Shown here one piece after another: positions 4,467 to 64,000 of a DNA stretch of 64,000 nt. Each line of letters opens with the position of its first letter. The stretch's first letter is position 1. This DNA is from Tubiluchus corallicola (Eukaryota; Animalia; Priapulida), in assembly GCA_030141605.1 (NCBI GenBank), contig JAQGDQ010000158.1:410437-474436 (forward strand), written 5' to 3'. A program made the translations under genes and the position numbers. The notes beneath the pieces are model-generated. The model saw nothing but the letters and a program-made list of their open reading frames with translations, made no database searches and was not told the origin of the DNA.

Positions 4467-4649
4467 TCCCACTTGAAGTCCATCTATAAGATCTTGAAGA
4501 TCAGGATCGTCTCTATACTTGTAGACAGCTTGAGTGAGAAAACTGGCAGGATTGACATTTGTCGTGTTAGGATCAGCAAAAATCAACACGAAGGCAACTC
4601 CACCCAGGACGACCGTGGCCACGAAGATGAATATAATCGTGTACGAAAA
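4467..4649 (-). CDS. TspanC8 tetraspanin exon: TM3 and start of large extracellular loop
   Basis: tttttgcag ... GTGAGT, 183 nt, phase 0/0. Encodes FSYTIIFIFVATVVLGGVAFVLIFADPNTTNVNPASFLTQAVYKYRDDPDLQDLIDGLQVG; YRDDxDLQxLIDxxQ is typical of TspanC8. Confidence 0.95.
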
Positions 4650-6276
4650 CTGCAAAAATGAAAAAGAAATAAACCTGGTTTGAATTGAAACAATCTAAAT
4701 AATTACTGCTTTGAAGCAACAGGACAGAAAAAAACTGCTTGTCGCGGAGTACCGGAAAGATGGAGAATTTTGCCTACCTGGAAAATAAGAGACATCCCAA
4801 ATGTAACACAAGTATTTCAGGCTCAGAACCTCTATTCATCAATAAAGTGCGCTGTGACCAAATACAAATGGGTGTCTATTGGCAAAGTATTAAAGCTGGG
4901 CAGGAATTTTGAAGGTAAATTTATGCAGAATTTTTGTCTAAAACTGTACTTGGACGGACAAACATTAAACGTAAACGTAAAAATGTCTGACTGCATGAGT
5001 GTTTATTTGAGCACATAATTGTATGGACATTTTGCTTACATCATATTCCTACTAATTTATTGCACTCAGTAATTCTATTTCAGCTTAGCGACATTTAATG
5101 TCTGAGCATCTTTATGAAATTGTTTTATTACCTATGAAGCAATTCGAGGCTTTTCTTATCAACGTCTAGTGATATATCATGCCTATAAAGATCATTTAAT
5201 ATTATGATGCTTATTGAAATCAGTACCTACAAAAGCATCCCATAGATTTAAACGCCTTTTATTATGTACCATGCTTTATGATGTGCATGGTAAGGCTGCA
5301 ATAATGTTAGTTGACATTGATAAGCATACGAAAAATAGAAAAAAAACTTAAAGCAGTAGTCAACTAATACTTAGCAGTTTGCAGTTTGTTTTTGCAACAA
5401 ATTAGCGGTTTTGTGTAAATGGTAGCATGAAATAGGTCAAGAAACATCGTCTTTTGACATTTTGTAGAATAATTCAAGCTGAATTTGAAGAGAACCGTTG
5501 ATCTAAATTTAACAGCACATTAAGCTTGATTCGTTTATTTTTGTCCTGTGGGTTAACTACATCAACTATCGCAACTCTGCTTCTTTTAGCAACTTGTTTT
5601 ATTCTTGAGCTGTCTAATTGGGCACAGTTTGTCAATTTTGTGCACTTGCTCTTTGAAGAATCAGTTTTAATTTAAAGTCTCACACAATAAAAAACTCTTA
5701 CTTGTCATGTAGTAGTAGTCTCTTTATACTCGTCAGAACCGAATGCACGAAAAGTTGTATTTATTATACACTGTCAGTATTGAACGTGTCTTTATGAATA
5801 GAATTTGGTGTTTAGTCATTCGCACAGTGAACATAATCATGCGCGCTCAGAGGCGCATAGCATTGTCCAATTGAGCACAATTATATTCGGGCAAATACGT
5901 GAGAGAAAGGTCCAAAGTCGCTTAAACGTTGCTGGTTTTCGTGCAACATGTCCATTTCGCTTGTGAAAATTATTAAATTATTACTTCATATGTATGCTAC
6001 ACCTCATGACAATTAGAAATGAATACGAATTGTAAATGACATCAACTGATTGTTGTAATTTTGTAAAAACGTTGAGCTTAGATCAAGCCTTTCCTGCCAT
6101 GATTTGTTGCAAAAGTTGTCCCAAGTTGCTGTGTTAAATCAGACATTTAACCACCAGAAGGTGTGAACCGTTTACGTGCAAGATAAAATATGGTATGAAC
6201 GCACCACTGTTATTGAATAGCCTTCGAAATCTTCTTGTTCAGACTTTTGCAGCGTATTAAAGAATTAGAGACTAAC

Positions 6277-6465
6277 CGTTTTTAATAAGCAAGTGTTCTC
6301 CCTTAAGGAGCCTGTGCAGCCAAGAAAAGCAAGAACAAACATGACGCATCCACACGCTAGCATCAAAATTGTTGGGTCCAAAACAACGTCCATGATGTCC
6401 ATGATTTGCTTCTTCTTGTCAAGAAATGCATATAGACCTACTCCAGCAAAAAATGCACCGCCAAC
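6277..6465 (-). CDS. TspanC8 tetraspanin exon: end of TM1, small loop, TM2
   Basis: ttacag ... GTTAGT, 189 nt, phase 0/0. Encodes VGGAFFAGVGLYAFLDKKKQIMDIMDVVLDPTILMLACGCVMFVLAFLGCTGSLRENTCLLKT with the DP and GCxGxLRENxCLL motifs. Confidence 0.95.
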
Positions 6466-12678: not shown

Positions 12679-12986
12679 CTTTCCATTATTTTACTGGTTG
12701 ACCCAATGATGTTTCAGATCATTGGCTTTATTGATGTCTCCAGCTACTGCTGGTATTTTCCATTATTTTACTGGTTGACCCAATGATGTTTCAGATCATT
12801 GGCTTTATTGATGTCTCCAGCTACTGCAGGTATTTTCCATTATTTTACTGGTTGACCCAATGATGTTTCAGATCATTGGCTTTATTGATGTCTCCAGCTA
12901 CTGCAGGTAGTTTCCATTATTTTACTGGTTGACCCAATGATGTTTCAGAGATCATTGGCTTTATTGATGTCTCCAGCTACTGCAGG
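12679..12986. repeat. 77-bp tandem repeat, 4 near-identical copies
   Basis: CCATTATTTTACTGG recurs at 12683, 12760, 12837 and 12914. Confidence 0.95.
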
Positions 12987-17172: not shown

Positions 17173-17793
17173 CGAAAACTCAGTGTTCTTTAATAAATGT
17201 TATTTTAATTTACCGAGTTGATGCATTGTGTTTTCGAAAACTCAGTATTCTCCAATAAATGTTATTTTAATTTACTGAGTTGATGCATTGTGTTTTCGAA
17301 AACTCAATATTCTCCAATAAATGTTATTTTAATTTACTGAGTTGATGCATTGTGTTTTCGAAAACTCAATATTCTCCAGTAAATGTTATTTTAATTTACT
17401 GAGTAGATGCATTGTGTTTTCGAAAACTCAATATTCTTTAATAAATGTTATTTTAATTTACTGAGTTGATGCATTGTGTTTTCGAAAACTCGATATTCTC
17501 CAATAAATGTTTATTTTAATTTACTGAGTTGATGCATTGTGTTTTCGAAAACTCAATATTCTCCAATAAATGTTATTTTAATTTACTGACTTGATGCATT
17601 GTGTTTTCGAAAACTCAATATTCTTTAATAAATGTTATTTTAATTTACTGAGTAGATGCATTGAGTTTTCGAAAACTCAATATTCTTTAATAAATGTTAT
17701 TTTAATTTACCGAGTTGATGCATTGTGTTTTCGAAAAGTCAATATTCTTTAATAACTGTTATTTTATTTTACCGAGTTGATGCATTGTGTTTT
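17173..17793. repeat. 62-bp tandem repeat, 10 copies
   Basis: Unit CGAAAACTCAATATTCTCCAATAAATGTTATTTTAATTTACTGAGTTGATGCATTGTGTTTT, head-to-tail with no spacers. Confidence 0.95.
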
Positions 17794-17979: not shown

Positions 17980-18250
17980 TGCTCCTGAGTGGTCACACTC
18001 TGAGTTCTGTTAGTAAATGAAATTAAGTAACGTCAGGCCTGGTTAGTAAATGAATGGGTGACCAGCGAGAAAGTAGCTTCCGTATAATTTCATCAACTAT
18101 ACGGCTCCAGCTACTTCATTTATTGAGGGAGGGTGGGCATACATCCAAGACACCCCTGCCAGTTTTGTCTCAATTTAAGGAATAAAAAGTTAAATAGGCT
18201 AGAGTGCTAGATCTTGCCTAGCCTTTGCTACGGAACTGGTCCTGTCGTTG
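17980..18250 (+). mobile_element. Degenerate SINE with 5S-derived internal promoter segment
   Basis: 18019-18063 GAAATTAAGTAACGTCAGGCCTGGTTAGTAAATGAATGGGTGACC resembles the 5S A/IE/C region. The body differs from the 43208 element. Boundaries approximate. Confidence 0.55.
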
Positions 18251-32631: not shown

Positions 32632-33112
32632 CATTAGTTTGGTCATGAGCTTGGTCATCAGTTTGGTCATAAGTTTGGTTATGAGTTTGGGGATTAGTTT
32701 GCCCATGAGTTTGGCCATGAGTTTGGTCATGAGTTTGGCCATAGGATTAGCTATGAGTTTGGCCATGAGTTTGGTCATGAGTTTGGCGATGAGTCTGGTC
32801 ATGAGTTTGGCGATGAGTCTGGTCATGAGTTTGGTCATGAGTTTGGTCATCTGTTTGGTCATGAGTTTGGCCATGAGTTTGGTCATGAGTTTGGACATAA
32901 GATTAGCTATGAGTTTGGTCATGAGTTTGGCCATGAGTTTGGCCATAAGATTAGCTATGAGTTTGGCCATGAGTTTGGCGATGAGTTTGGCCATAAGATT
33001 AGCTATGAGTTTGGCCATGAGTTTGGCGATGAGTTTGGCGATGAGTCTGGTCATGAGTTTGGTCATGAGTTTGGCGATGAGTTTGGCCATGAGTTTGGAC
33101 ATGAGTTTGGTC
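32632..33112. repeat. 12-bp minisatellite, about 40 copies
   Basis: Unit ATGAGTTTGG(T/C)C with variants; produces stop-free frames on both strands. Confidence 0.95.
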
Positions 33113-36858: not shown

Positions 36859-36945
36859 ATGACGACACTTTTAACGTTACTTTCACTTATGCTAGGGCTA
36901 TTTGTATTTTGCACTGCAGTAGAACATAAATTCATATCAAAAAGA
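36859..36945 (+). CDS. CCAP: CCAP-family neuropeptide precursor, coding exon 1 (signal peptide)
   Basis: Exon opens at acceptor tctttcag|36776, with an in-frame TAG upstream of the ATG. Encodes MTTLLTLLSLMLGLFVFCTA-VEHKFISKR (hydrophobic core, C-T-A cleavage site, KR). Perfect GTAAGT donor, phase 0. Confidence 0.82.
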
Positions 36946-38942
36946 GTAAGTAGTTTGAGACATCATGTATTTCATTTCATGCATAATTGTACTACGTTAC
37001 CCTAACCTTATATTATTTACCAATTACGCCAAACAGAAGCAACCGTCGAAAATTCTTTGATGCCCAGTTGGGGCGTCTACACCCGTCAAAATTTAAACAG
37101 TAGAAAATTTTGAGTCATTCAGATTCTTACTTATAACATTCAACCGTATAGGTCTGAGGTGAAATAAATCTAGTGCTTGCTAAGCTGTTGAAGTAAGTAA
37201 AAATCTGGTTATTGATTGCCCTGCTGCCAAACGCTTATTGGAGTTTTGACATGCGCAACAAAGATTAATTTTAATTTTAAGTTCATCAGCTGATTGTAAT
37301 TCAATCAAATGTTTTAACGAGTATCGAGTTTGATAATTATTAGCTGTAATGGCCCATTATTCTTTTATTAGCAGTTTGCACTCCCCACTTTCACCGTGTG
37401 GATACCTGAATCAAACCCAGTCTGTTTTGTAAATCAATTATAACTAAATAAAGTTTAAACTAAACTATTTTTAATCGAAAGAACAGTGACAATGAATAAA
37501 AAATCTAACATTAAAAAGGAGAAAAAGAAAGAAATCACAAGGAATTATTAGAACTACTGAACTAATTTTTGGGAGTTTCTTTCTTTATATTATTGATACA
37601 TAAAAGGGATATCACTGAAAAGGATACAAACGCGTAGAAAAAACACAGTAGCACAGCAGATTAGTCGGTCACCGCCCAATAGACTGTGTCAGCAGAATAT
37701 ATAAAAGACCATATTGTGTGAGCTATTGCTAATGCAAATGAATCACGTTACAGTATAAGTAGGGGCTGCCCGATAGGAGATACCTTTGCGAGAAGCCCGT
37801 TTGGACGTAAAATTGCAGAAAATTGCCGGAAATTTATCAATTATATCATACGAAAAGAAAACTCCTTTGATAGCTCAAGAATAAGATTCATTATTATCAA
37901 CAATGAAAAAACAAAGACGATTGGCGGATTCATGAGGGATACTTTGCAGTGCCTTCCACAATAGTAATAACAAAGAATGTGAAACACTAGAAACTAATGA
38001 GAAACCAGCGCTTTTAAAATTTATAGGCTATATCACAAACGAGTATTATTAAAGATGTACAATATTTGAGTTTTTGCGAATTTCAGCGTTTCTGCAAAAA
38101 CAAGATGGTCATTATTTAAAAATATATTTGCAAGATTCTGAGCCTTTACATACATTAATATACCAGTGAAATTACCAATCTGAGCAACAAAGTTTTACTG
38201 AAGCGATAATTTCATATATTCTCATGGAAATTACCACAAAAACTTTCCTAGCGTTGAATTTTATTCAACAAAAAAGATAAAATGTTAATTTAACCAGCTG
38301 CTTGTTATGCATTAATGGCGTTGGTAAAATCTGCTCGTTAGCTCCCAAATCATTTTATTTATGTTGACAAGAATGAGGTCCCTCGTTAGCGCTGTGACAA
38401 TGACTGCCACCTGCGTTTAATATGTGAGATTCAAGTAAAACGGAGCGTCGAAACTGTTAAACTTTATTCTGTCCTCCTACGCAGCTGATACATTAAATAC
38501 GATGCAGTACAATCTTTTGGTGAAGCCATGCAGTTCATATTATACAGCAATGTCTGTTGGACAACTTGAAATTTTATTACATGAACTTGATTTGTACGAA
38601 CTTAATGGTTCTAGGATTTTTTTATGTCATTTTGTCTTATAGAATAGGCGGGATTACATATTTTCTAACTTTTAAAACAGTTCTGATGCATACTTTTACG
38701 TGATATGGCAAGTTAAATTGAGCGCCGTTGGTACTGTAACAAATACGATCGCCCGCTACTCAGTGCTATGACATCACAAGGGGCAGTACAGTAGACAGCC
38801 AGACAGCAATGATGTATTAGTTAATAAAAAGTTTGTTACAATAGATTTATCTAATTATAGCAAAAAAACTTACGGTTGTAGGTTGGTCTATAGTATACTT
38901 TCACTCGTGTCCCAGTCTCTCAATTACCGCTTGAGCTTGCTC

Positions 38943-39124
<182 letters not shown>

Positions 39125-39649
39125 AAGAACTCGTTCTTTACTTGCTATGGTTAAAAATACTTGTATGTAGCACATTTATAAATAATTGGGTTTAGAAACA
39201 GTTTATAATATAGACGTATTAAAAATTTACAAATAACAAACGAGTATATTGTAATTACTGTGTATTTATAGTAATACTATATAGCAACCTGCAAATAAAA
39301 TTATTTTTAAACGGCTGTTAAATAAAAGTTCAATAACAGACTTGCATTTATCAGTTGTAGCAACCTGGCTTCTCGACTTCTACATTTATGAGAGTTTGAT
39401 TCTGTGATGCCCAGTACACTACTCATTATTGACCTATATTTGTGCAATAAAAACGTTGCATGATGATGGGTGTTTATGGCATGTGATCTAAGGGCGATAA
39501 TCTTAATAAAGCATTCCCTGTACAAACTAGACGGTAATTTGAAAGAACAGCTAAATATTAAGTAGCCAAAAACAGCGGACAGCGTAAAACTATTCAAGGT
39601 AAACCACTAGGTCTGCACATTAGGCCTAGTGCGAGATGAAGTTATTTCG

Positions 39650-40279
39650 ACGTTTTGCAGTAACTACCTTACCGTCACCAGGATTCAGAGTTTTTACATC
39701 TGTAATAAAATGTAATTAATCTGATTATGTACACAGTTAGGCGGGTAAAGATAGCTCCTAGTAAAGGGGTACGTAGAACAAATTTTTCGTCTCAGATTCT
39801 GTTTGAACATGGCTTCAGATACCCTCAACAAAAATCAGCCAAAATCGCCTTTGGTTCTTTTCAGGTGCACCTTCCTATCAGCCGATAATACATATTTTTC
39901 ATCTCGGCTGGATGGCTTAGAGGATATAACTGATTTTTGGCTCCAGTAGGCGCTATGTTGCATTTATCCGTATATTTCAAAAGTACCAATGCCGATTTTG
40001 GCCGATTTTTTGCTGAGGGTACTTGAGACCACATTCTAACAGAAGAGAAAATTTCTATTGCAATTTGTTCTACGTTACTTATTATCTTTGCCCGCCTAAG
40101 TCAGTAATTATAATGAGTTGTTACCGTTTCTGACCAGTTATGCATTTACTCTTACTGAAGGTAACGGCTTAACAAATGTAGCAACTAATTCTAATTACTG
40201 ACAGTATGTATAATCAGAGTAAATCTTACAGATGTAAAAATTCTGAAGCTTGATGACGGGTAGGGTTTCCTCGAAACGT
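39650..40279. mobile_element. Outer inverted repeat pair resembling Penelope-like terminal repeats with decayed hammerhead motif
   Basis: 39650-39734 is an imperfect reverse complement of 40204-40279. The right arm ends TTGATGACGGG...CTCGAAACGT. Confidence 0.5.
39737..40099. mobile_element. MITE with long imperfect inverted arms
   Basis: TTAGGCGGGTAAAGATA / TATCTTTGCCCGCCTAA ends, plus internal inverted blocks (ACGTAGAACAAATT; CTCAACAAAAATCAGCCAAAATCG). Confidence 0.75.
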
Positions 40280-42061
40280 GACAGATCATTTATCTGGCAT
40301 TATTTAAACCTTTTTGTTAAAGTCTAACATCATCTTACCTGCAAGTGTCTTGAAGAAAAGCAGCGCACTGTCAATCCTTCATCAAAAGTATAATTAACTA
40401 AGTATAATAACTTAGTTAATTTTGTAATATTTTGCGTGAATATTAGATAAGCTACAGAAATTTGAATGAGTTTTAGTAGCGCGCGCTTACGGAAAGCCAC
40501 GATGCGCTTACGAAAAGTCACGAAGTCTCCTAGGTACGTCATAATTTTCAAGTGAATGGCGACTACCACCACTCCCGAAAACTTCTATTCGGAGGCGGTA
40601 TATTTTAAATTTATGTTTTATAGAAATTCTTTTTGCAAAATTCTTTGTTATATTTTTCTAAGTTTAAGTGATAACAGTAAAATAAGCCCAATATACTGAA
40701 TGACTTGTACTTTCCTTTAACACTTTATCTGGAAACTCTCGTCGCGGATCTAAGAGAACCCCAACGCTGATTTGTTACTTTGTTTTAGGTATCTAGTTTT
40801 GCACTTTTTAATTCGTGTTAGCTCGCAAGCGCAGAGGGCTTCAGTCACGAAATTTGTCACGAGTCCTAGGACAGACACCTAGGAAACTTACAGAGGCCTA
40901 TGAAAGTAGACGGTGAACAGTGACAATAGTGACAAGTCGGTGAACAGTGATACAGACAATAGTGTGGTTTTGAGATAGTGAGTTAACCACACTCGACCAG
41001 ATATAATCAGGTGTAAACAAAGTCACGGCATTGCTTGCGTGCATTTGAATTAGAATCCATCCAGCCTTGTTATGAACCACTGATGCAGTTAATGTACCTG
41101 GAGTAAATGATATCGCGAATCTATGATATGTTCTTGTTCACTTCATTTTGTTGCAACTATTTAAACTAATGATTAAATTCCAAGGGCTTGTATGGAATCT
41201 TATATAATCCACGGACTTTTCTATCAGGCGTTACATACATTCGTATGCTCTTAGCTAAGTCACTATTGTGAGATGTTGTACTGTTTGCTGCCGTTTTGTT
41301 GTAACCTGTGCTTTTTCCCGATTTTCTCTTGTGGTTCACAGCAGCAAACAGCCCGTCATCTCGCAATAGCACTGAGTTAGGAACAATGGAGTGTATGTAA
41401 CCCTGACAGAAAGTCCCTGTATTACGTGAGCGCCTCATATAATCCCCTGTATAATAATTACTTAAAGAGTTACAAGAAACTTTACTGTGTTTAATCTGGA
41501 CTCTGTTCTTAACCTGTGATTATGTTCCTTAGTGTGTGGTAGTTTTCTGTGCTTTACAGAAGATGTCTTAATACAATTTTATACATAATAGACATATGAT
41601 ATATATATATACCTATGTGTAAAAAACTTAGTAATTAGAAATTAGCCATTGCTTTTGTTTCTCTTTTTTCTTTTTCACTTGAAGATAGTTGACAGTGATG
41701 GGGTGATCGGTTGCAAAGTCGTGTCTCCTCTTCTTCTAGTGGGATTTTTGTATTAACTTGTATCTATTCTTGCCATTAAGAATTGTTTTGCCAAAACAGG
41801 TAAACTCTTATGACTGCCACACTGAAGTACTAAAATTAAAAAATGTCGCCTATTCATTAATGCCGAATTAACGGAAAACAAAGCCTCTTTACAGCTGTAT
41901 TCGAGGCACATGCTAATGTCACGTGGGAGAAATGGCAAAAATTCTAAAAGAAATTCTAACAAGCAACTTCACCTAATTCTTTGTCTGTCATTGTTTAAGC
42001 TCGTTATAAACATTTCGCAAAAGACGAAGAAAACTAAAATAATTTTTGTGTTTTTTTTCAG

Positions 42062-42286
42062 AGTATCGACAAAAGACCATTCTGTAATCAGTTCACTGGG
42101 TGTAGGATACGATATTCGAAAAGAGAGGACGACGCGGCGGATGACTATGATTCAGCGTACATGGAACTTGCGGAACGACTAGTCAATGAAGCAAAAATGT
42201 GGGAATCACTGATAGATAGAATGAAAGTCGAAAAGCAAAGAAATCTCATGGACCAAGACAAAGCCAATGACGAATTTTTAATAACG
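42062..42286 (+). CDS. CCAP: CCAP-family neuropeptide precursor, coding exon 2 (peptide 1 and associated peptide)
   Basis: ttttttttcag ... ACG|GTATGT, 225 nt, phase 0/0. Encodes SIDKR-PFCNQFTGC-RIRYS-KR-EDDAADDYDSAYMELAERLVNEAKMWESLIDRMKVEKQRNLMDQDKANDEFLIT. 8/9 identity to CCAP PFCNAFTGC, plus an EAKMWE motif resembling the EAKLWE of arthropod CCAP precursors. Confidence 0.93.
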
Positions 42287-43207
42287 GTATGTGTAGCTCA
42301 CACAGGTAACTCTTGCCAACCATATATATTACTGTCAAGATTAAGAACATAGTCCAACAATGTTTTAATCCAGGTTAATCAAATACACCCTTTGGTCATT
42401 GTAATAATCTCTGGGCTCTGTGGGTCGTAGAAAAAGAAACCTGTTTTACATGATTGTAGCTAGTAAATCAAAAGTATTTTACTCAATCAAACTGTGATTT
42501 TCTATAAAATGGCCGTCTCTTTATAAAGGCATCTTCTTTGCTGAGACACAGTCACACAGAGATGTGTTTTATTATTTTATACAGAAATGATTACAAAGTG
42601 ATTAATGATTCAAAGCCAAATACGGGAATTCAATAGTTTTGTAATTCAAAGGCCTTGCTTTAAAATGGCGCTGCTTGCGTGTTTTAAAAGGCATTGGCTT
42701 TGCAATAGTTATTGCCTCCGCGATTCAGAAAATGCAATGGTGCTTTTTCTTATATTATGTGCATTTTAAAAAAAATTATCAATTACAGTTCATCATCCGA
42801 TTGACCTGTTCAACACAGTTTGACAGAAGAGCAAAAACTAACATGAGCAATTATCAGAAAAACCAATAGATCTATAATCGTTAATCGTTTTTATCAAAGC
42901 GATCTAAATTTACAACGAATATGCAACAACGCCTTTAGGTCCTTTAAAATCAAATTTATATCGCATTAACAAAAAATCCAGAAATGGTGATATCGTTTTG
43001 CCATCTGGGATCAGAAGCATAGTGGCTCAACTGTATAGCAAAATCATAACGTTAGCACTCGACTAGCATTTGTTCAACCGTTGCTGTTAACAAGCTCTGT
43101 GCTTCACAGTTCAGATTCAGAATAGGTAATAAAATGCAGGAGAGCAATGGTGGTTTTACGAATAAAATTCGTTAAATCCGGTTTTGGAGTGTGCCATATT
43201 TAGTTTT

Positions 43208-43325
43208 GCTACGGCCAATTCGCGTTAAAAACACCGGTTCTCGTCTGATCACCGAAGTTAAGCAACGTAGAGCCTGGTTAGTGCTTGGATGGGTGACCGC
43301 CTAGCAATACCAGGTGTTGTATGCT
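43208..43325 (+). pseudogene. 5S rRNA-like sequence forming the SINE head; probably not a functional 5S gene
   Basis: Matches eukaryotic 5S along its length (CACCGGTTCTCGTCTGATCACCGAAGTTAAGCA...GGTTAGTGCTTGGATGGGTGACCGCC). Lacks a T-run Pol III terminator and reads through into the SINE body. Confidence 0.8.
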
Positions 43326-43685
43326 TGCGGGATGCCCACACTGTATCTCGACACTAGGCGGAGGAGCTGTACAAGCAGCCAACGGCTAGAGGGCGGAGGA
43401 GATCAAGTGACCCAACGGCCATGTGTAGAGGCGTAAACCTTCCAAATCAGGAGTGGCGCCCCGAAGGCGGAACAGTGCAGCAGCTCCTGCAGCCAACCTG
43501 GTGCCAAACGTATCGTTCGCTTTCCTTTGGACTACACCAGGGAGGAAGAGAGGGTGTTCCTGCGGTTTTTGACAACTCAGGGTCTCCACTCATCTTGCCC
43601 AGGCGTGCGCGCTGGAGACGTTCAAGGATCGGATTCCCTGGCGCACATTCCATTGTCTTCCGAGACAGAAGTATGCCAACAAAAA
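43208..43685 (+). mobile_element. Full-length 5S rRNA-derived SINE (SINE3 type)
   Basis: 5S-like head, about 360-bp GC-rich body, short A-rich tail, flanked by a 12-bp TSD with one mismatch (ATATTTAGTTTT 43196-43207 and ATATCTAGTTTT 43686-43697). Confidence 0.82.
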
Positions 43686-43699
43686 ATATCTAGTTTTAG

Positions 43700-44750
43700 C
43701 GAAATATAATAAAATATTTTAGAACTTGTATGAGAAAAATTTTACGTCACTAACTGGCAGTATTTTTATGTGTTTAAAAAGGGAACAAGGTGATGCAGTT
43801 GTTTAAAATTTGTTTTTAAAAGTTTGTATTTTTTATTATTCTACACGCAATCATTTTTCTGCGGGAGCTCCATTGTAAGAAAACACAAAAACATTTTGTT
43901 TATTTGTTTAGTTACAGAGCAGGCAGTTGAAAGATATAGAATCCTTTGTTTCGTGGGACGGGAGTTGGTTTTGTTTTGGATTTAGAGATAATTTGTTCGT
44001 TTTAATTGTAACTTGGCGGAAATTATTAGTAATGTACAATTTGGGTTGCAGGAAGTACTTTAATATTCACAACTGCTGTGACGTTGGCGAATTGCGTAAT
44101 TTGCAAATTATCTTTCACGTAGCAAAGTCAATTAAATAAAAGGAGCCTCAAAATAAAGCCCTAAGGGACACCGCATTTAACTACCTCTCGATCTTAGACG
44201 TGCTCTAAAGCCCGTTACTGCTTCCATCTCAGCCTTTGCAGCATGAATTCACAGATAACCTCATTTTCTGGCTCTGATTTAGTGGGCGAATTTTCCTGGC
44301 AATCTTATTTACAATCGATTATTTTCCTTCTGCAACAAGCCAAAAGCAAAATAGCTTTTCAAAACTCGGATCGAAACTGGGAGCTCGTTGACGTTTAATT
44401 CCAAATGACATTAAGGTCGCTGATAATGTCAGGTCTATTGTAAGGAAATTCAATTCTGTATCAAAAGGTGATCCAAAGTCTCGTAATGTATGGGCCTTTA
44501 ATGCAGAACGACAAGAAAAAAAATTAACTTGAAAGCAGGGTATGGAAACGAGTTGGGAAATGGAAATACATTCAGAGTGATAAAAATCTGTAGGAAAATT
44601 GGGAATTTTTGCTATTACTGCATAAAGCCATCTACAGTAATTCCAACATCATGGAGAGCAAATGTTCGTTTCTTACTGTATTTGGCTTCTGTGAGGATTA
44701 AGATTAAAGGAAAATCTGGCGATTGACTAGACTCAATCTGACTTTAATTT
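43700..44750 (-). mobile_element. Decayed LINE RT remnant in CCAP intron 2
   Basis: Minus strand reads VKCGVP*GFILRLLLF (decayed GVPQGSILGPLLF) near 44140-44185 and NKLSLNPK near 43970-44000. Boundaries approximate. Confidence 0.65.
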
Positions 44751-46964
44751 ACTGTCCAAAAAATACATTTTCTTGCCTATAAAACTTAGCAGTTGTTCTA
44801 ATTAACGGCAACCGAGCACAGCTACCGTTTACGTCACAAGCTAACCACAACTTGTGCAATGGTAGGCATCTTCCTTGCGCATTAAACACGTTTGCGTAAG
44901 CGAAGATTGCTATAAGACGCGGAGGCTTCATAAGGCCCGAGTATGACAAAAAGGCGCCACTGCCAATCATAGTGGATTCGCTGAATTGCGCGTAGCTTTG
45001 ACGGTTTAACAAAATTTAACTATCTGAGGTAACTATTATTCAATCCAAACTTTGACTTAAAAAAGCTGTTATAGATTTCAATATTTTAGAGCATACTTTA
45101 CTTTAATTAATGTCAACGCAATTGTCAGTTTTTCTTTAATAAAAATATAATCTCCGTGCCCTCGCGAAATTGTAGGCTTAGGCCTACTCTATGAGATTAC
45201 CGTTTCTGTCATTTGAGTTGTTTTAATGATTTGACCTATTTTTGGTTTTCAAGTCCAGGAATGACCACCGCTTGTTATTCTAAAATAAATGGACACTATC
45301 TGGCATTTTGTTGTTTATCCTTTGGGTGCACAATAGTGCAAAGCCTGTTTATTTAGCCTTCATGTTTGATGCCGACGTTAATATCCAAATCGGTCGTCGT
45401 TGGTCACTTTTGATATCATCTTCTAAGTGGTTTGTCTTACAGTGGTACACAGTAAATTTTTCTTGGATACTTCGATATTTATATCTTGATTTAACACTGC
45501 TTTTCATTCAAGGGCTTCCAAATATTGTAAGCGTAAAATACTAGTATAACCTACCATGGGCACCTCTCCCTCGTAGCACTCGTATGTATAATTGCGACTT
45601 ATTGTGTTCTTTCTTGTTTCGTTGCATTGCGACACTGATGTTCAGCAATCAGCAGTGTTTTACAGTGACAACTCTCTTTGCGAGCATCTCGTACTTCGAG
45701 AGTATTGTCATGAGTTTGGGTTAACACTTACAATGATAGCCTAGGTAGATTAGCTAAAATACGAAAAAGACTCATTAGATTAATAGCGCACTCCCTTTAT
45801 AGAACGCATACTAATGCTCTTGAATTTACTGAAAATTATTGACATTAATAAACTTAAAAATGCCTGTTTTATGTACAATTTCTAGAACAATTTATCACCA
45901 AATATTTTTCAACGATTTTTTTTATTATAATAAAAATATTCATGAGTATAAAGCTAGACAAGCGAAAAACATAAATGCTGCCAAGTCTAAAACAAATGTT
46001 TTGAAACATTTTGTCAAATATGACGGTGACATAGAATGGAATATTCCTTATGCCATAAAAAATGTTAGAAATCTGCAACACATGAAAGTCAAAATGAATA
46101 TGTTTTTACTTAGCTTCTATTAAATTATTATTTTACATTGAACATAATATTGTATTGTACTTGTCATATTTTTTATATTTTTCATTTTTCATTTTAGTTT
46201 TGTATTAGTACTTGTACATGATGTTTTTAGTTAGGTCGCAATTTACTATTTTTATTGGTCAACTAGCAAAAGATAAATATGTATCCTTATTCATTGAAAT
46301 ATAAACAGGTGAACAAGTCAGGGGACTTCAATACCACCATGTCAAAAATATCTAAGCTAGAAACTTGAATTTTTCTAACATTTTGCCACACACTTCATTT
46401 CTGTTGTACTTGTAAATAATAATAATTTTGTTTCACTTTTGCATATTTTATATGGCAATAAATGTAAAGAACACGTCTTATTTAGAAGATTACTACGTAC
46501 CCAAATTAAGACGCCTACCGTAGGCTATTATGGCCTTGAAAGTGAAAAGTAGGCAATATCATAAAAACGACGTCAAATATCAGTTCCTTGACCAAAAAGG
46601 TTGTAGAAGTCATATACTGTACACCAGTGTAAGCCAATTACACTGAGAAGATAATTTCCTAATGGTTGATGGCAGCCATTTTGGATACTGGGCTCTCAGA
46701 AAGTTAGGCCAAATGAGGTGTTTCAGGGACGTCCATAGTTTTACGTTTCTTCAATATTGTTTGTCTAACTGGCTTAGTTGTCTGCCATTCAAACTACACT
46801 AGAATTAGAGTCATAAGTACTGTTTATGATTTGGTCGTGTTTGTAACAGAACTAACAAGTTTCACACCTGTGACGATCTAGAAAAAGCAACTAGTCCACA
46901 CTACGTTGTGAGTCCCAGATTTGCACGTGATTGTTTTGTTGTTAAGTGTTGTCTCTTTTTTCAG

Positions 46965-47042
46965 AAACGACCATTCTGCAATTTACACACAGGATGCAGC
47001 TTACAGCGACGGAAAAGATGGACAACATCTTATGTTGTTTAG
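46965..47042 (+). CDS. CCAP: CCAP-family neuropeptide precursor, coding exon 3 (peptide 2 and stop)
   Basis: Acceptor ctcttttttcag, phase 0. Encodes KR-PFCNLHTGC-SLQ-RRKR-WTTSYVV then TAG; 7/9 identity to PFCNAFTGC. AATAAA at 47182-47187. Confidence 0.88.
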   Translation, partial: KRPFCNLHTGCSLQRRKRWTTSYVV

Positions 47043-58007: not shown

Positions 58008-58692
58008 ATGACTCCTGAAGGTTCCTCCTGATGACTCCTACCTGAAGGTTCCTCCTGATGACTCCTGAAGGTTCCTCTTGATGACTTCTGGAGGTTCCTC
58101 CTGATGACCTGCATGTTCCTTAAGAACTCCTAGAGGTTCACCTTGTTGACACATAAAAGTTCCTCCTCATGACACCTAGAGTTTCCTCTTGATGACTCCT
58201 GGAGGCTCCTCCTGATTATTTCTGGATTTTCCTCCTGATGACTTTTGGAGGTTCCTTCTAATGATTCTTGGAGGTTCCTTTTGATGAATCCTGGAGGTTC
58301 CTCTTGATGACTCCTGGGGTCTTCTTCTGGCGATTTCTGGAGGTTCCTTCTAATGACGGCTGGTGTTTCCTCCTATTCACTTCTGAAGTTTCCTCCTGTT
58401 CACTCATAGAGGTTCCTCCTGATGGCCCCTGGAGCCTGGAGGTTCCTCCTGATGACTACTGAAGGTTCCTCCTGATGATTTCTGGAGGTTCCTCATGATG
58501 ACTCCTGGAGGTTCTTCCTGATGACTATTGGAGGTTCCTCCTGATGTTTTCTGCTGGATCCTCCTGATGACTCCTTGTGGTTCCTCGTGATGACTCTTGA
58601 AGGTTCCTTCTGATGACTCCTGGTGGTTTCTCCTGATGACTTCTGGAGGTTCCTCCTGATGACTTCTAAAGTTCCTCCTGATGACTCCTGAT
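58008..58692. repeat. 23-bp minisatellite, about 30 degenerate copies
   Basis: Consensus near GGAGGTTCCTCCTGATGACTCCT. Confidence 0.92.
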
Positions 58693-60986: not shown

Positions 60987-63900
60987 TTACTCAGCTTCTT
61001 CGAGGAGACATAGCTTAGTTATTGGTCTAAGCAATGTCGTAGATGGGGTCTTCACCATAACTGATCTCACGAGTCCATCCGGAGCTGGAAATACTTCGGT
61101 GATTCTGCCTGTTGTCCATTGATTCCGAGCAGCATTCTCATCAACGACCAGAACCAAATCATTCTCTTTAAAGTTTCTTTTTACAGTCAGCCATTTCTGA
61201 CGTTGTTGCAAGTTTGGAATGTATTCCTTGACCCAGCGGCGCCAGAAGATGTTGACGAGATACTGGCACTGCCTCCATCTCCTTTTCAGCATAGAGTCGT
61301 CTTTGCAGAAGATGCCTGGTGGCAAATTTGGGCAAGGTCGCTGTAGAATGAGGTCATTTGGCGTTAATGGTCTGAAGTCATTTGGGTCATTGGAAAACTC
61401 CGTTAAAGGTCTGTTGTTCATGATGAACTCGGCTTCAGCAATCAAAGTCAGCAAGACTTCATCAGTAATGGTTTGTTCCTTCAACAGTTGCCAGAAGATG
61501 CCACGGAAAGATCTGATACACCTTTCCCAAACACCACCATGGTGACTGGCCCCTGCAGTGTTGAAGGTCCATTTTACACCCCTTTGCACCATATGCTTGT
61601 TTAATTTTTCTTCATTCCACAGTTGTAGAGCTTCACGAAGTTTACGCTCACCACCAATGAAGTTTGTCCCTCTGTCAGTCCAGACTTCCAGCACCTCTCC
61701 TCTTCTACATATGATTCTTCGAAATGCGTTGATGAAGGAGTCGGTGTCAAGATTGTGCGTGATCTCTATATGAACAGCTCTGGTGGCCATGCATGTAGCA
61801 AGGCACCCATAGCGCTTGATGGTAGAACGGCCTTGTCTAACATATATCGGCCCGAAAAAGTCGATTCCTATTCTGGAAAATGGAGGATCGTATGGCTTAA
61901 TCCTTGCAGTCGGAAGATCTGCCATTAACTGCTCGGCAGGCCGGGAGCGTTCTTTCTTGCATTTGAAGCACCGAGACAAAACTCTTCTTACTGCGCTTTT
62001 CCCCTTAATAATGTAATACTTCAGTCTCATCTGGGAAAGAACGTAGTCTCTGCCTAAATGAGCATATGATTCATGATAATATTGAATCAGCAAGTCAGTT
62101 ATGTGATGTTTGTAGGGAAGAATCAGTGGATATTTGTAACCATAGTTGAAGCTACCTCTGGTTAGTCTTCCATAAACTCTCAGTAGGCCTTCGGCATCCA
62201 CGAAGGGTCTGATGCCATACAGAGGACTGGACTTTAGGTGATTCTTCTCTTTATTAAGTGATTCTTTATTACCTGGTAATGCGGGAGACATCAGTTTTAT
62301 CTCTTCTCGAAATGCAATCTTCTGCACCAAATGAATAATGGATTTCTCTGCTTCTTCCAGATCACCATATCGCAGATGCTTCTCTATCTTTCCATGGCAA
62401 CCTGTTCCCTTGTTCCTCAAGTAATGTTTATACTTGATGAACCAAGCTACAGAATTACGGAGTTTTTCCCATGAAGAGAAATAAGTTAGCAACTCGTCTA
62501 TTGGCTCTTCTTGGATGGCCAAGTTGATCTGCACTTTCTTCACTTCTTCATGGTCATCAGGTACTGGGAATAGTGTTGGCTGTGCTGGCCATTCAGCTTG
62601 TGTTTTCCAGAGAAAAGGAGGACCCTTGAACCATCTGTGGTCTGCAGATAGCTGTTCTGCCTTTATGCCTCTTGTTATGTCATCTGCAACATTCTGCGAA
62701 GAAGTGACATACCGCCATTGACTAACATCTGAACCACAATGAATCTCAGCGAGTCTATTGGCCACATACACTTGGAACCTCTTCTTTTCATTTTGGATGA
62801 ATTTCAAAACTGATGTTGAATCAGTCCAGAAAACAACAGCATCTATTTTGATGTCTAAAGCTTCTAGAATTGTTTTGTTTATTCTGACAGCAATAATTGA
62901 AGCTTGCAATTCTAATCTCGGCACAGTTTGTGTTTTCAAAGGAGCAACTCTGCTCTTAGCTGTTAGCAGACAACAATGAATCTGTCCCTGCTGATTAACA
63001 AACCGGACATAGGAGCATACTCCATAGGCATCATTCGAGGCATCACTAAAATGATGCAGTTGGGTAGATGTAGCAGGTCCGAAATTGATCAGCTTGATAC
63101 ATCTCGGAATATTCAGGTCATTAAGACTGCTCAAGCTACTGGTCCACTTTAGCCACTTAGCTTCTAGATCATCTGGGATATGCTCATCCCAATCAAGCTT
63201 TAGCTTGCACAAGTGCTGGAGTAAGACCTTGGCTGGTAGAATCACAGCACATAAGAAACCCAAAGGGTCAAACAATGATGATGTCTCAGACAGGATACCT
63301 CGCCTCGTGGTAGGTTTGCCCTTCAGAACAGACTTGAATTGAAATACATCATCTTGAGTGTTCCATCTAATTCCAAGGGCACTCTCTATTGGTGGATCAG
63401 CTAGCTTCTGTTGCAAGTCCAGAATAGGTTTGGCTCTTTCCAATTCCGGAATTTCTTTGATAACAGCCTCTCTGTTACTAAGGAACTTTGTCAAGTGGAA
63501 ACCGCCTCTCTGCAGTAGTTCCGTGAGGCTATTTGCTAGTCTTACTGCTTCATACTCTGTGCTGACAGACTTTAACAGATCGTCAACATAAAAATTGTTC
63601 TTTACAGCATACAGTGTTGCAGCATCAAAATCATGAGCATTGTCATCAGCTGTCTTTCTGACTGCCAGATTGGCACAAAATGGTGATGAGATACAACCAA
63701 ACAAGTGAACAGACATGTGGTAGTCTACTGGACTGTCGCCAATCTGAGCGCCATCATCATACCACAAGAATCTCAGCATGTCATACTGTGAAGGATCTAC
63801 GAGGACCTGGTTGAACATGCCCTCGATGTCTGCACAAATAGCAACTTCATGCTCTCGGAACCGTAGCAATACATCTAATAAATTTGATGTCAGATTTGGT

Positions 63901-64000
63901 CCAGACATTATAACATCATTCAGAGATATGCCATTGCACTTGCAGGAGCAATTAAAAACAACACGGATCTTGTTTGGCTTCCTAGGGTGAAATACTCCAT
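60987..64000 (-). CDS. pol: BEL/Pao pol polyprotein (RT, RNase H, integrase), 5'-truncated by the window
   Basis: The frame stays open to the window edge (GVFHPRKPNKIRVVFNCS...SLNDVIMSGPNL). RT motifs ADIEGMF and YVDD; Pao DPLG motif; RNase H FSDAS, PRLEL, WTDS; zinc finger HESYAH...CFKC; integrase GIDFFGP, TDRGTNF, GVWER; C-terminal RPITKLCLL. Confidence 0.97.
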   Translation of the reverse strand, partial: GVFHPRKPNKIRVVFNCSCKCNGISLNDVIMSGPNLTSNLLDVLLRFREHEVAICADIEGMFNQVLVDPSQYDMLRFLWYDDGAQIGDSPVDYHMSVHLFGCISSPFCANLAVRKTADDNAHDFDAATLYAVKNNFYVDDLLKSVSTEYEAVRLANSLTELLQRGGFHLTKFLSNREAVIKEIPELERAKPILDLQQKLADPPIESALGIRWNTQDDVFQFKSVLKGKPTTRRGILSETSSLFDPLGFLCAVILPAKVLLQHLCKLKLDWDEHIPDDLEAKWLKWTSSLSSLNDLNIPRCIKLINFGPATSTQLHHFSDASNDAYGVCSYVRFVNQQGQIHCCLLTAKSRVAPLKTQTVPRLELQASIIAVRINKTILEALDIKIDAVVFWTDSTSVLKFIQNEKKRFQVYVANRLAEIHCGSDVSQWRYVTSSQNVADDITRGIKAEQLSADHRWFKGPPFLWKTQAEWPAQPTLFPVPDDHEEVKKVQINLAIQEEPIDELLTYFSSWEKLRNSVAWFIKYKHYLRNKGTGCHGKIEKHLRYGDLEEAEKSIIHLVQKIAFREEIKLMSPALPGNKESLNKEKNHLKSSPLYGIRPFVDAEGLLRVYGRLTRGSFNYGYKYPLILPYKHHITDLLIQYYHESYAHLGRDYVLSQMRLKYYIIKGKSAVRRVLSRCFKCKKERSRPAEQLMADLPTARIKPYDPPFSRIGIDFFGPIYVRQGRSTIKRYGCLATCMATRAVHIEITHNLDTDSFINAFRRIICRRGEVLEVWTDRGTNFIGGERKLREALQLWNEEKLNKHMVQRGVKWTFNTAGASHHGGVWERCIRSFRGIFWQLLKEQTITDEVLLTLIAEAEFIMNNRPLTEFSNDPNDFRPLTPNDLILQRPCPNLPPGIFCKDDSMLKRRWRQCQYLVNIFWRRWVKEYIPNLQQRQKWLTVKRNFKENDLVLVVDENAARNQWTTGRITEVFPAPDGLVRSVMVKTPSTTLLRPITKLCLLEEAE

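Follow-up and report, generated by a model that had tools for sequence, protein, structure and literature searches.

What would a CCAP-type gene release when the codon directly after the second ring cysteine encodes arginine rather than the glycine needed for amidation? The question is raised by positions 42077-42124 of the window, by which we mean the whole 64-kb stretch of Tubiluchus DNA that was analyzed. We propose that this segment belongs to a three-exon CCAP gene encoding two Gly-less peptides, predicted to be released as 14- and 12-residue free-acid rings and to target the CCAP/NPS-type receptor of the same animal; we give this reading a probability of about 0.55.

Peptide 1 and the spliced gene

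Read codon by codon, the plus strand at 42077-42124 translates as PFCNQFTGC followed by RIRYS and KR. The first codon is CCA (Pro, at 42077), the fifth is CAG (Gln, 42089-42091), and the second cysteine (TGT, at 42101) is followed directly by AGG (Arg, 42104-42106) and then by ATA (Ile), CGA (Arg), TAT (Tyr) and TCG (Ser); one K-R pair precedes the peptide (42071-42076) and another, AAA-AGA, closes it and ends at 42124. The sequence-only reading had reported R-I-R-Y-S-K-R in place of glycine after the second cysteine and glutamine in place of Ala5, and both are borne out by these codons. The ring matches canonical CCAP at eight of nine residues, with one change; by chance, 7.8e-7 occurrences of the ring motif would be expected over the six reading frames of the 64-kb window. 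A second ring, at 46971, was found by a six-frame motif scan, and a profile scan across the 64 kb returned the two known rings as the sole matches with E < 0.6. Exon 1 was located by scanning for an ATG, a hydrophobic run and a donor; the 11-residue hydropathy of its signal region reaches 2.68, and the exon matches the N-terminus of P0001, a Logan protein considered below. The features of the gene are as follows.

36859-36945, plus strand: coding exon 1, with the ATG, a predicted signal peptide, a short propeptide ending in K-R and a phase-0 donor, GTAAGT
36859-36918, plus strand: predicted signal peptide, about residues 1-20, from hydropathy
36946-42061, plus strand: intron 1, 5116 bases, GT..AG, phase 0
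42062-42286, plus strand: coding exon 2, 75 codons, phase 0 at both ends, with K-R, peptide 1, K-R, an acidic spacer and a Trp helix
42077-42118, plus strand: peptide 1, a CCAP-type ring with Gln5 and the tail RIRYS, a predicted 14-mer free acid
42119-42124, plus strand: dibasic K-R site 3′ of peptide 1, predicted to be cleaved
42167-42226, plus strand: Trp helix (CCAP-associated peptide) with an EAKMWE motif, resembling arthropod and onychophoran precursors
42287-46964, plus strand: intron 2, 4678 bases, GT..AG, phase 0
46965-47042, plus strand: coding exon 3, with K-R, peptide 2, R-R-K-R, seven residues and the stop codon TAG
46971-47006, plus strand: peptide 2, the ring PFCNLHTGC with the tail SLQ, a predicted 12-mer free acid

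The exon junctions are seen in X6, a 489-base contig (kind 'RNA?') from a different study that was added by its species label. X6 aligns to 42061-42283 and has unaligned ends of 158 and 123 bases; the 30 bases shown of the upstream overhang are the 3′ end of exon 1, and the 30 shown of the downstream overhang are the start of exon 3. X6 thus joins the three exons, showing that the transcript is processed. A stretch inside intron 1 (41685-41799) also resembles an exon in its pyrimidine tract and its good donor; it was rejected as the signal-peptide exon, having stops in all three frames, and X6 joins 36945 to 42062. Intron 2 harbors a 5S rRNA-like copy on the plus strand (43208-43325; Rfam RF00001, 82.9 bits), a repeat of very high depth that is probably a 5S-derived SINE, and a more decayed 5S-like piece was seen by eye near 18030-18070.

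The codon at 42104-42106 was checked in assembled contigs, X1, X2, X3 and X6, of which X1 and X2 come from one sample and X1 is a possible source of the window sequence. Record 4 of X1 (depth 148) spans 42028-42459 with no differences to the window; X2 differs at nine positions, none of them within 42077-42124; and the coverage of X3 ends at 42081, short of the codon. A further contig set, X5, contains next to none of this region. X6 has 14 differences in exon 2. Among the 12 that are listed, three fall in peptide 1, all synonymous, and none touches 42104-42106; five of eight altered spacer codons change the residue, versus none of three in peptide 1. Gln5 is present in P0001 and in a second Logan protein, P0002; X6 leaves room at this position, with two of its 14 differences unlisted and possibly near an end. 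X6 further lacks 15 bases of the acidic spacer (42132-42146), an in-frame deletion that P0001 and P0002 do not share. Under the same species label, X6 diverges by approximately 7% in coding DNA, and several cryptic species may share that label. The two alleles of X1 over 41927-42057 are distinguished by 8 of 131 intron bases and by one insertion, a sign of high heterozygosity.

Family membership and close relatives

The precursor has two x-F-C-N-x-x-x-G-C rings, each directly behind K-R. Both ring cysteines are invariant, and a Cys3-Cys9 disulfide is predicted. The glycine donor after Cys9 is absent, being replaced by Arg in peptide 1 and Ser in peptide 2, and positions 5 and 6 are Gln-Phe and Leu-His, respectively, rather than Ala-Phe. 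One spliced precursor carries two peptide copies, compared with one in canonical arthropod CCAP.

Near-length searching gave only two candidates, P0001 (129 aa) and P0002 (119 aa), and a homologue search at longer length scored none of 18 candidates. P0001 and P0002 are full-length, 86-89% identical and span all three exons, and we infer that their source contigs (1420 and 1122 bases) are transcripts. With the Pfam CCAP profile (PF11105, gathering cut-off 27 bits) they score 44.4 and 44.5 bits, respectively, and on these profile scores membership of the CCAP family is shown for the full-length relatives; the exons of the window, scored singly, reach 22.4 (exon 2) and 20.0 bits, under the cut-off. 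For P0001, Atlas placed CCAP first at only 0.90, a tie with galanin, and the recognition score fell below its threshold; for the peptide exon alone, CCAP came third.

A search with P0001 against 1.84 billion representatives gave 12 matches, and the 10 that were looked up comprise six arthropods, one abalone, one nemertean and two unnamed entries. The Trp helix was assessed with a ring-free profile of six named arthropod precursors, which was made from these search results and is therefore biased upward in its score; the spacer scores 17.9 bits, a value reached by none of 1000 shuffles (best 14.7). The abalone and nemertean precursors score nothing or -0.4 bits on the helix profile, and the helix Trp is kept in 11 of 11 aligned rows. 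As judged from these alignments, the Trp helix argues for an arthropod-like ancestry of the precursor.

Across the window, P0001 and P0002, peptides 1 and 2 are identical; 0 of 26 peptide positions vary versus 21 of 71 in the remainder, made up of signal, spacer and C-terminus (p=5.5e-4, Fisher test), counts that come from close kin and do not represent independent events. For the tails alone the comparison (0 of 8 versus 21 of 71, p=0.073) is not significant. The 14-residue propeptide (36919-36945 plus 42062-42076) matches the peptides in this respect, with 0 of 14 positions variable in the three sequences; it may matter for processing or may itself be a small product.

No published description or named database entry of the precursor was found, the NP-HMMer preprint on priapulid peptides (10.1101/2024.07.20.604414) being covered in part; P0001 and P0002 each stand alone in an unnamed cluster. 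The strings PFCNQ, PFCNL and FCNQF are absent from the supplements of PMC6660194 and PMC8557429, and in the portions of the PMC6425005 and PMC3890597 supplements covered, peptide-string matches occur only in unrelated proteins.

Comparison with known CCAP precursors

The sequence-only reading took CCAP to be amidated. This premise stands for canonical arthropod CCAP, which in insects is described as an invariant amidated nonapeptide (PMC3510462, in excerpt), and one paper gives amidation as a family feature (PMC5996578, in excerpt); it does not hold in general, as Gly-less extended CCAPs are on record. Absence of the amide is in fact already known in CCAP outside the canonical arthropod form. 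In a 100-entry CCAP ligand set (PMC6660194), 14 species have at least one peptide in which no Gly precedes the basic site or the stop, a count made by eye in a set where some entries are fragments: Modiolus, Bathymodiolus, Deroceras, Gadila, Graptacme, Antalis, Idiosepius, Octopus, Tubulanus, Parasteatoda (second entry), Hypsibius, Ramazzottius, Capitella and Taenia. The records take in cephalopods, scaphopods and mytilids as well as annelids, tardigrades and the second gene of a spider, and the Gly-less form is the sole one listed for Capitella, the two tardigrades and Idiosepius (PMC6660194), as it is for Platynereis, where Ser precedes K-R (PMC3890597). The remaining arthropod entries have Gly after Cys9, and in the onychophorans Gly is combined with a tail of one residue (PMC6660194). 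In mollusks, CCAPs are said to vary more than the arthropod peptide does (PMC6523705, in excerpt).

Arthropod CCAP precursors (Pycnogonum P0008; mites P0006, P0007, P0009 and P0012; louse P0003; and the decapod and insect entries of PMC6660194) share with the Tubiluchus gene a signal peptide, a propeptide ending in K-R, a P-F-C-N ring behind K-R and an A-(K/R)-x-W-E helix. They differ in having one peptide, with Gly after Cys9 in seven of seven rings (P0003, P0006-P0010 and P0012, all but P0010 being named arthropods), whereas the Tubiluchus gene has two peptides with tails of five and three residues and Gln or Leu at position 5. Several rings, a variable position 5 and tails are likewise found in the multi-copy CCAP of lophotrochozoans (M-CCAP/conoCAP; Idiosepius, scaphopods, mytilids and nemerteans), and in Idiosepius both peptides lack Gly, as here; however, most lophotrochozoan peptides retain the Gly donor, and conoCAPs are amidated (PMC5100318, in excerpt). 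The annelid and tardigrade forms (Platynereis, Capitella, Hypsibius and Ramazzottius) also have a tail after the second cysteine and no Gly before the dibasic site, but carry one ring per precursor, other ring residues and, by eye, no clear EAKxWE helix.

Two further Logan proteins bear on the origin of the tail and of the layout. P0004, a distant relative, has a canonical ring followed by G-R-Y-N and K-R; it resembles the Tubiluchus gene in its R-Y-x tail before K-R, its want of a terminal Gly and its helix, which is the closest among 10 non-self proteins (similarity 66, versus at most 57 for named arthropods), and differs in keeping the canonical ring and Gly10 and in having one ring, in a fragment. 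Its G-R-Y-N tail implies that a tail of R-Y-x form, placed ahead of the dibasic site, would predate this species group, and suggests that the tail arose first and that Gly10 was lost later. P0013 has the same overall layout, with a Trp-containing spacer between two rings that both lack Gly; its rings, however, are I-F-C-N and its score on the arthropod helix profile is -1.3 bits.

What looks new, then, is the combination of an arthropod-like ring and Trp helix with tandem Gly-less peptides. One alternative to our reading is that the host, an arthropod or a near relative of one, has a canonical amidated CCAP gene as well, and that this is a divergent second gene whose Gly-less peptides would differ in potency or receptor. 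The arthropod-type ring and the helix fit such a gene, the helix pointing to arthropod-like precursors whose standard gene is single-copy and amidated, as do the arthropods that make up six of the eight named P0001 matches. There is also a precedent in the spider Parasteatoda, where a canonical entry stands beside a second one that is extended and Gly-less (PMC6660194), although by eye the latter has neither the helix nor a tandem copy; and the 64-kb window contains no further CCAP-like ring. We consider a second gene a serious possibility, if on balance an unlikely one.

More tentatively still, and with some doubt, we suggest that this could be the sole CCAP gene of a lineage with an undescribed CCAP ligand, uniting the arthropod-type Trp helix with the tandem unamidated peptides of lophotrochozoan type. 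If so, the ancestral protostome precursor would have had both, and the amidated nonapeptide would be an arthropod specialization; the mixed layout would in this way inform on the form of the ancestral CCAP precursor. Scalidophorans lie outside the search of PMC6660194, as far as its excerpt goes, and the ligand was not found in brachiopods or phoronids (PMC8557429, in excerpt). It is also reported absent from deuterostomes (PMC6660194), and a deuterostome host, which would overturn that report, is much less likely.

Predicted processing and the form of the products

On the three-exon reading that we favor, the signal peptide would direct the precursor into the secretory path and be cut near residue 20; a convertase would cleave at K-R and R-R-K-R, followed by carboxypeptidase trimming, and a Cys3-Cys9 disulfide would form in each peptide. 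Since no product ends in Gly, no PAM amidation step would take place. The predicted released products are cyclic free acids, a 14-mer and a 12-mer, with computed [M+H]+ values for one disulfide of 1689.76 and 1317.57 (peptide 2). An amidated nonapeptide is impossible from this precursor because neither peptide has a Gly donor. The 14-mer free acid put forward in the sequence-only reading is accordingly still the best prediction for peptide 1, the Gly donor being absent and the Arg retained in X6, P0001 and P0002.

The receptor would presumably be the NPS/CCAP-type GPCR of the same animal, and the gene would be the main CCAP gene of its lineage rather than a spare copy. In NPS work, receptor recognition occurs mainly through the N-terminal motif. 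The receptor here would likewise mainly sense the N-terminal F-C-N ring, leaving the tail free to vary. The family of NPS/CCAP receptors has been described, and in vertebrates the orthologous ligand, NPS, is given as an unamidated 20-mer (PMC6156427, in excerpt). Peptide 1 pairs a near-canonical ring with a conserved basic tail while lacking the amide, and it could serve as a natural probe of the need of CCAP receptors for a C-terminal amide, a subject on which our literature search found no structure-activity paper.

A different product would arise if peptide 1 were cut at a single Arg, as the sequence-only reading had also allowed; cleavage at R10 or R12 would give a 9-mer or 11-mer free acid (computed masses with one disulfide, 1014.38 and 1283.57) and leave the tail as a mere linker. 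The tail does contain two Arg, and the invariance of the tails alone does not reach significance. Ile after a monobasic Arg is disfavored for cleavage, however, and Ile follows R10, with an intact K-R five residues later; moreover, the tail of peptide 2 has no internal Arg, and the product would still be unamidated. Monobasic sites occur in spiralian peptidomes, but the empirical rule for them requires a further basic residue 3-6 positions upstream (PMC8557429, in excerpt). Neither Arg has one, which weakens the proposal, and we regard such a cut as improbable.

Venom mimics usually diverge fast, whereas the peptides here are invariant in three sequences. A CCAP-derived exocrine or venom peptide is thus very unlikely, even though the multi-copy, tail-extended layout resembles that of the cone snail conoCAPs and CCAP has been recruited into Conus venom (PMC5100318 and PMC13311285, both in excerpt); the conoCAPs, as noted, are amidated. 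An assembly error or a decaying pseudogene is essentially refuted: the data are contigs, and X1 may be the window's own source, but the Arg is retained in X6, P0001 and P0002, which excludes the GGN at 42104-42106 that had been offered as an escape, and the frame is open over three spliced exons with a purifying pattern.

Elsewhere in the window, tetraspanin exons lie on the minus strand at 6277-6465 (PF00335, 38.4 bits) and about 4475-4657; by eye, they look TspanC8/Tspan33-like, and a word search for a tetraspanin homologue scored none of 40 candidates. Tandem repeats occupy 12680-12986 (period 77), 17173-17793 (period 62), 32632-33110 (period 12) and 58008-58690 (period 23). The pol of a BEL/Pao LTR retroelement is found on the minus strand at 60990-63998, as a 1003-codon open frame that runs past the window end and contains Peptidase_A17, DUF5641, integrase zinc finger and RT domains.
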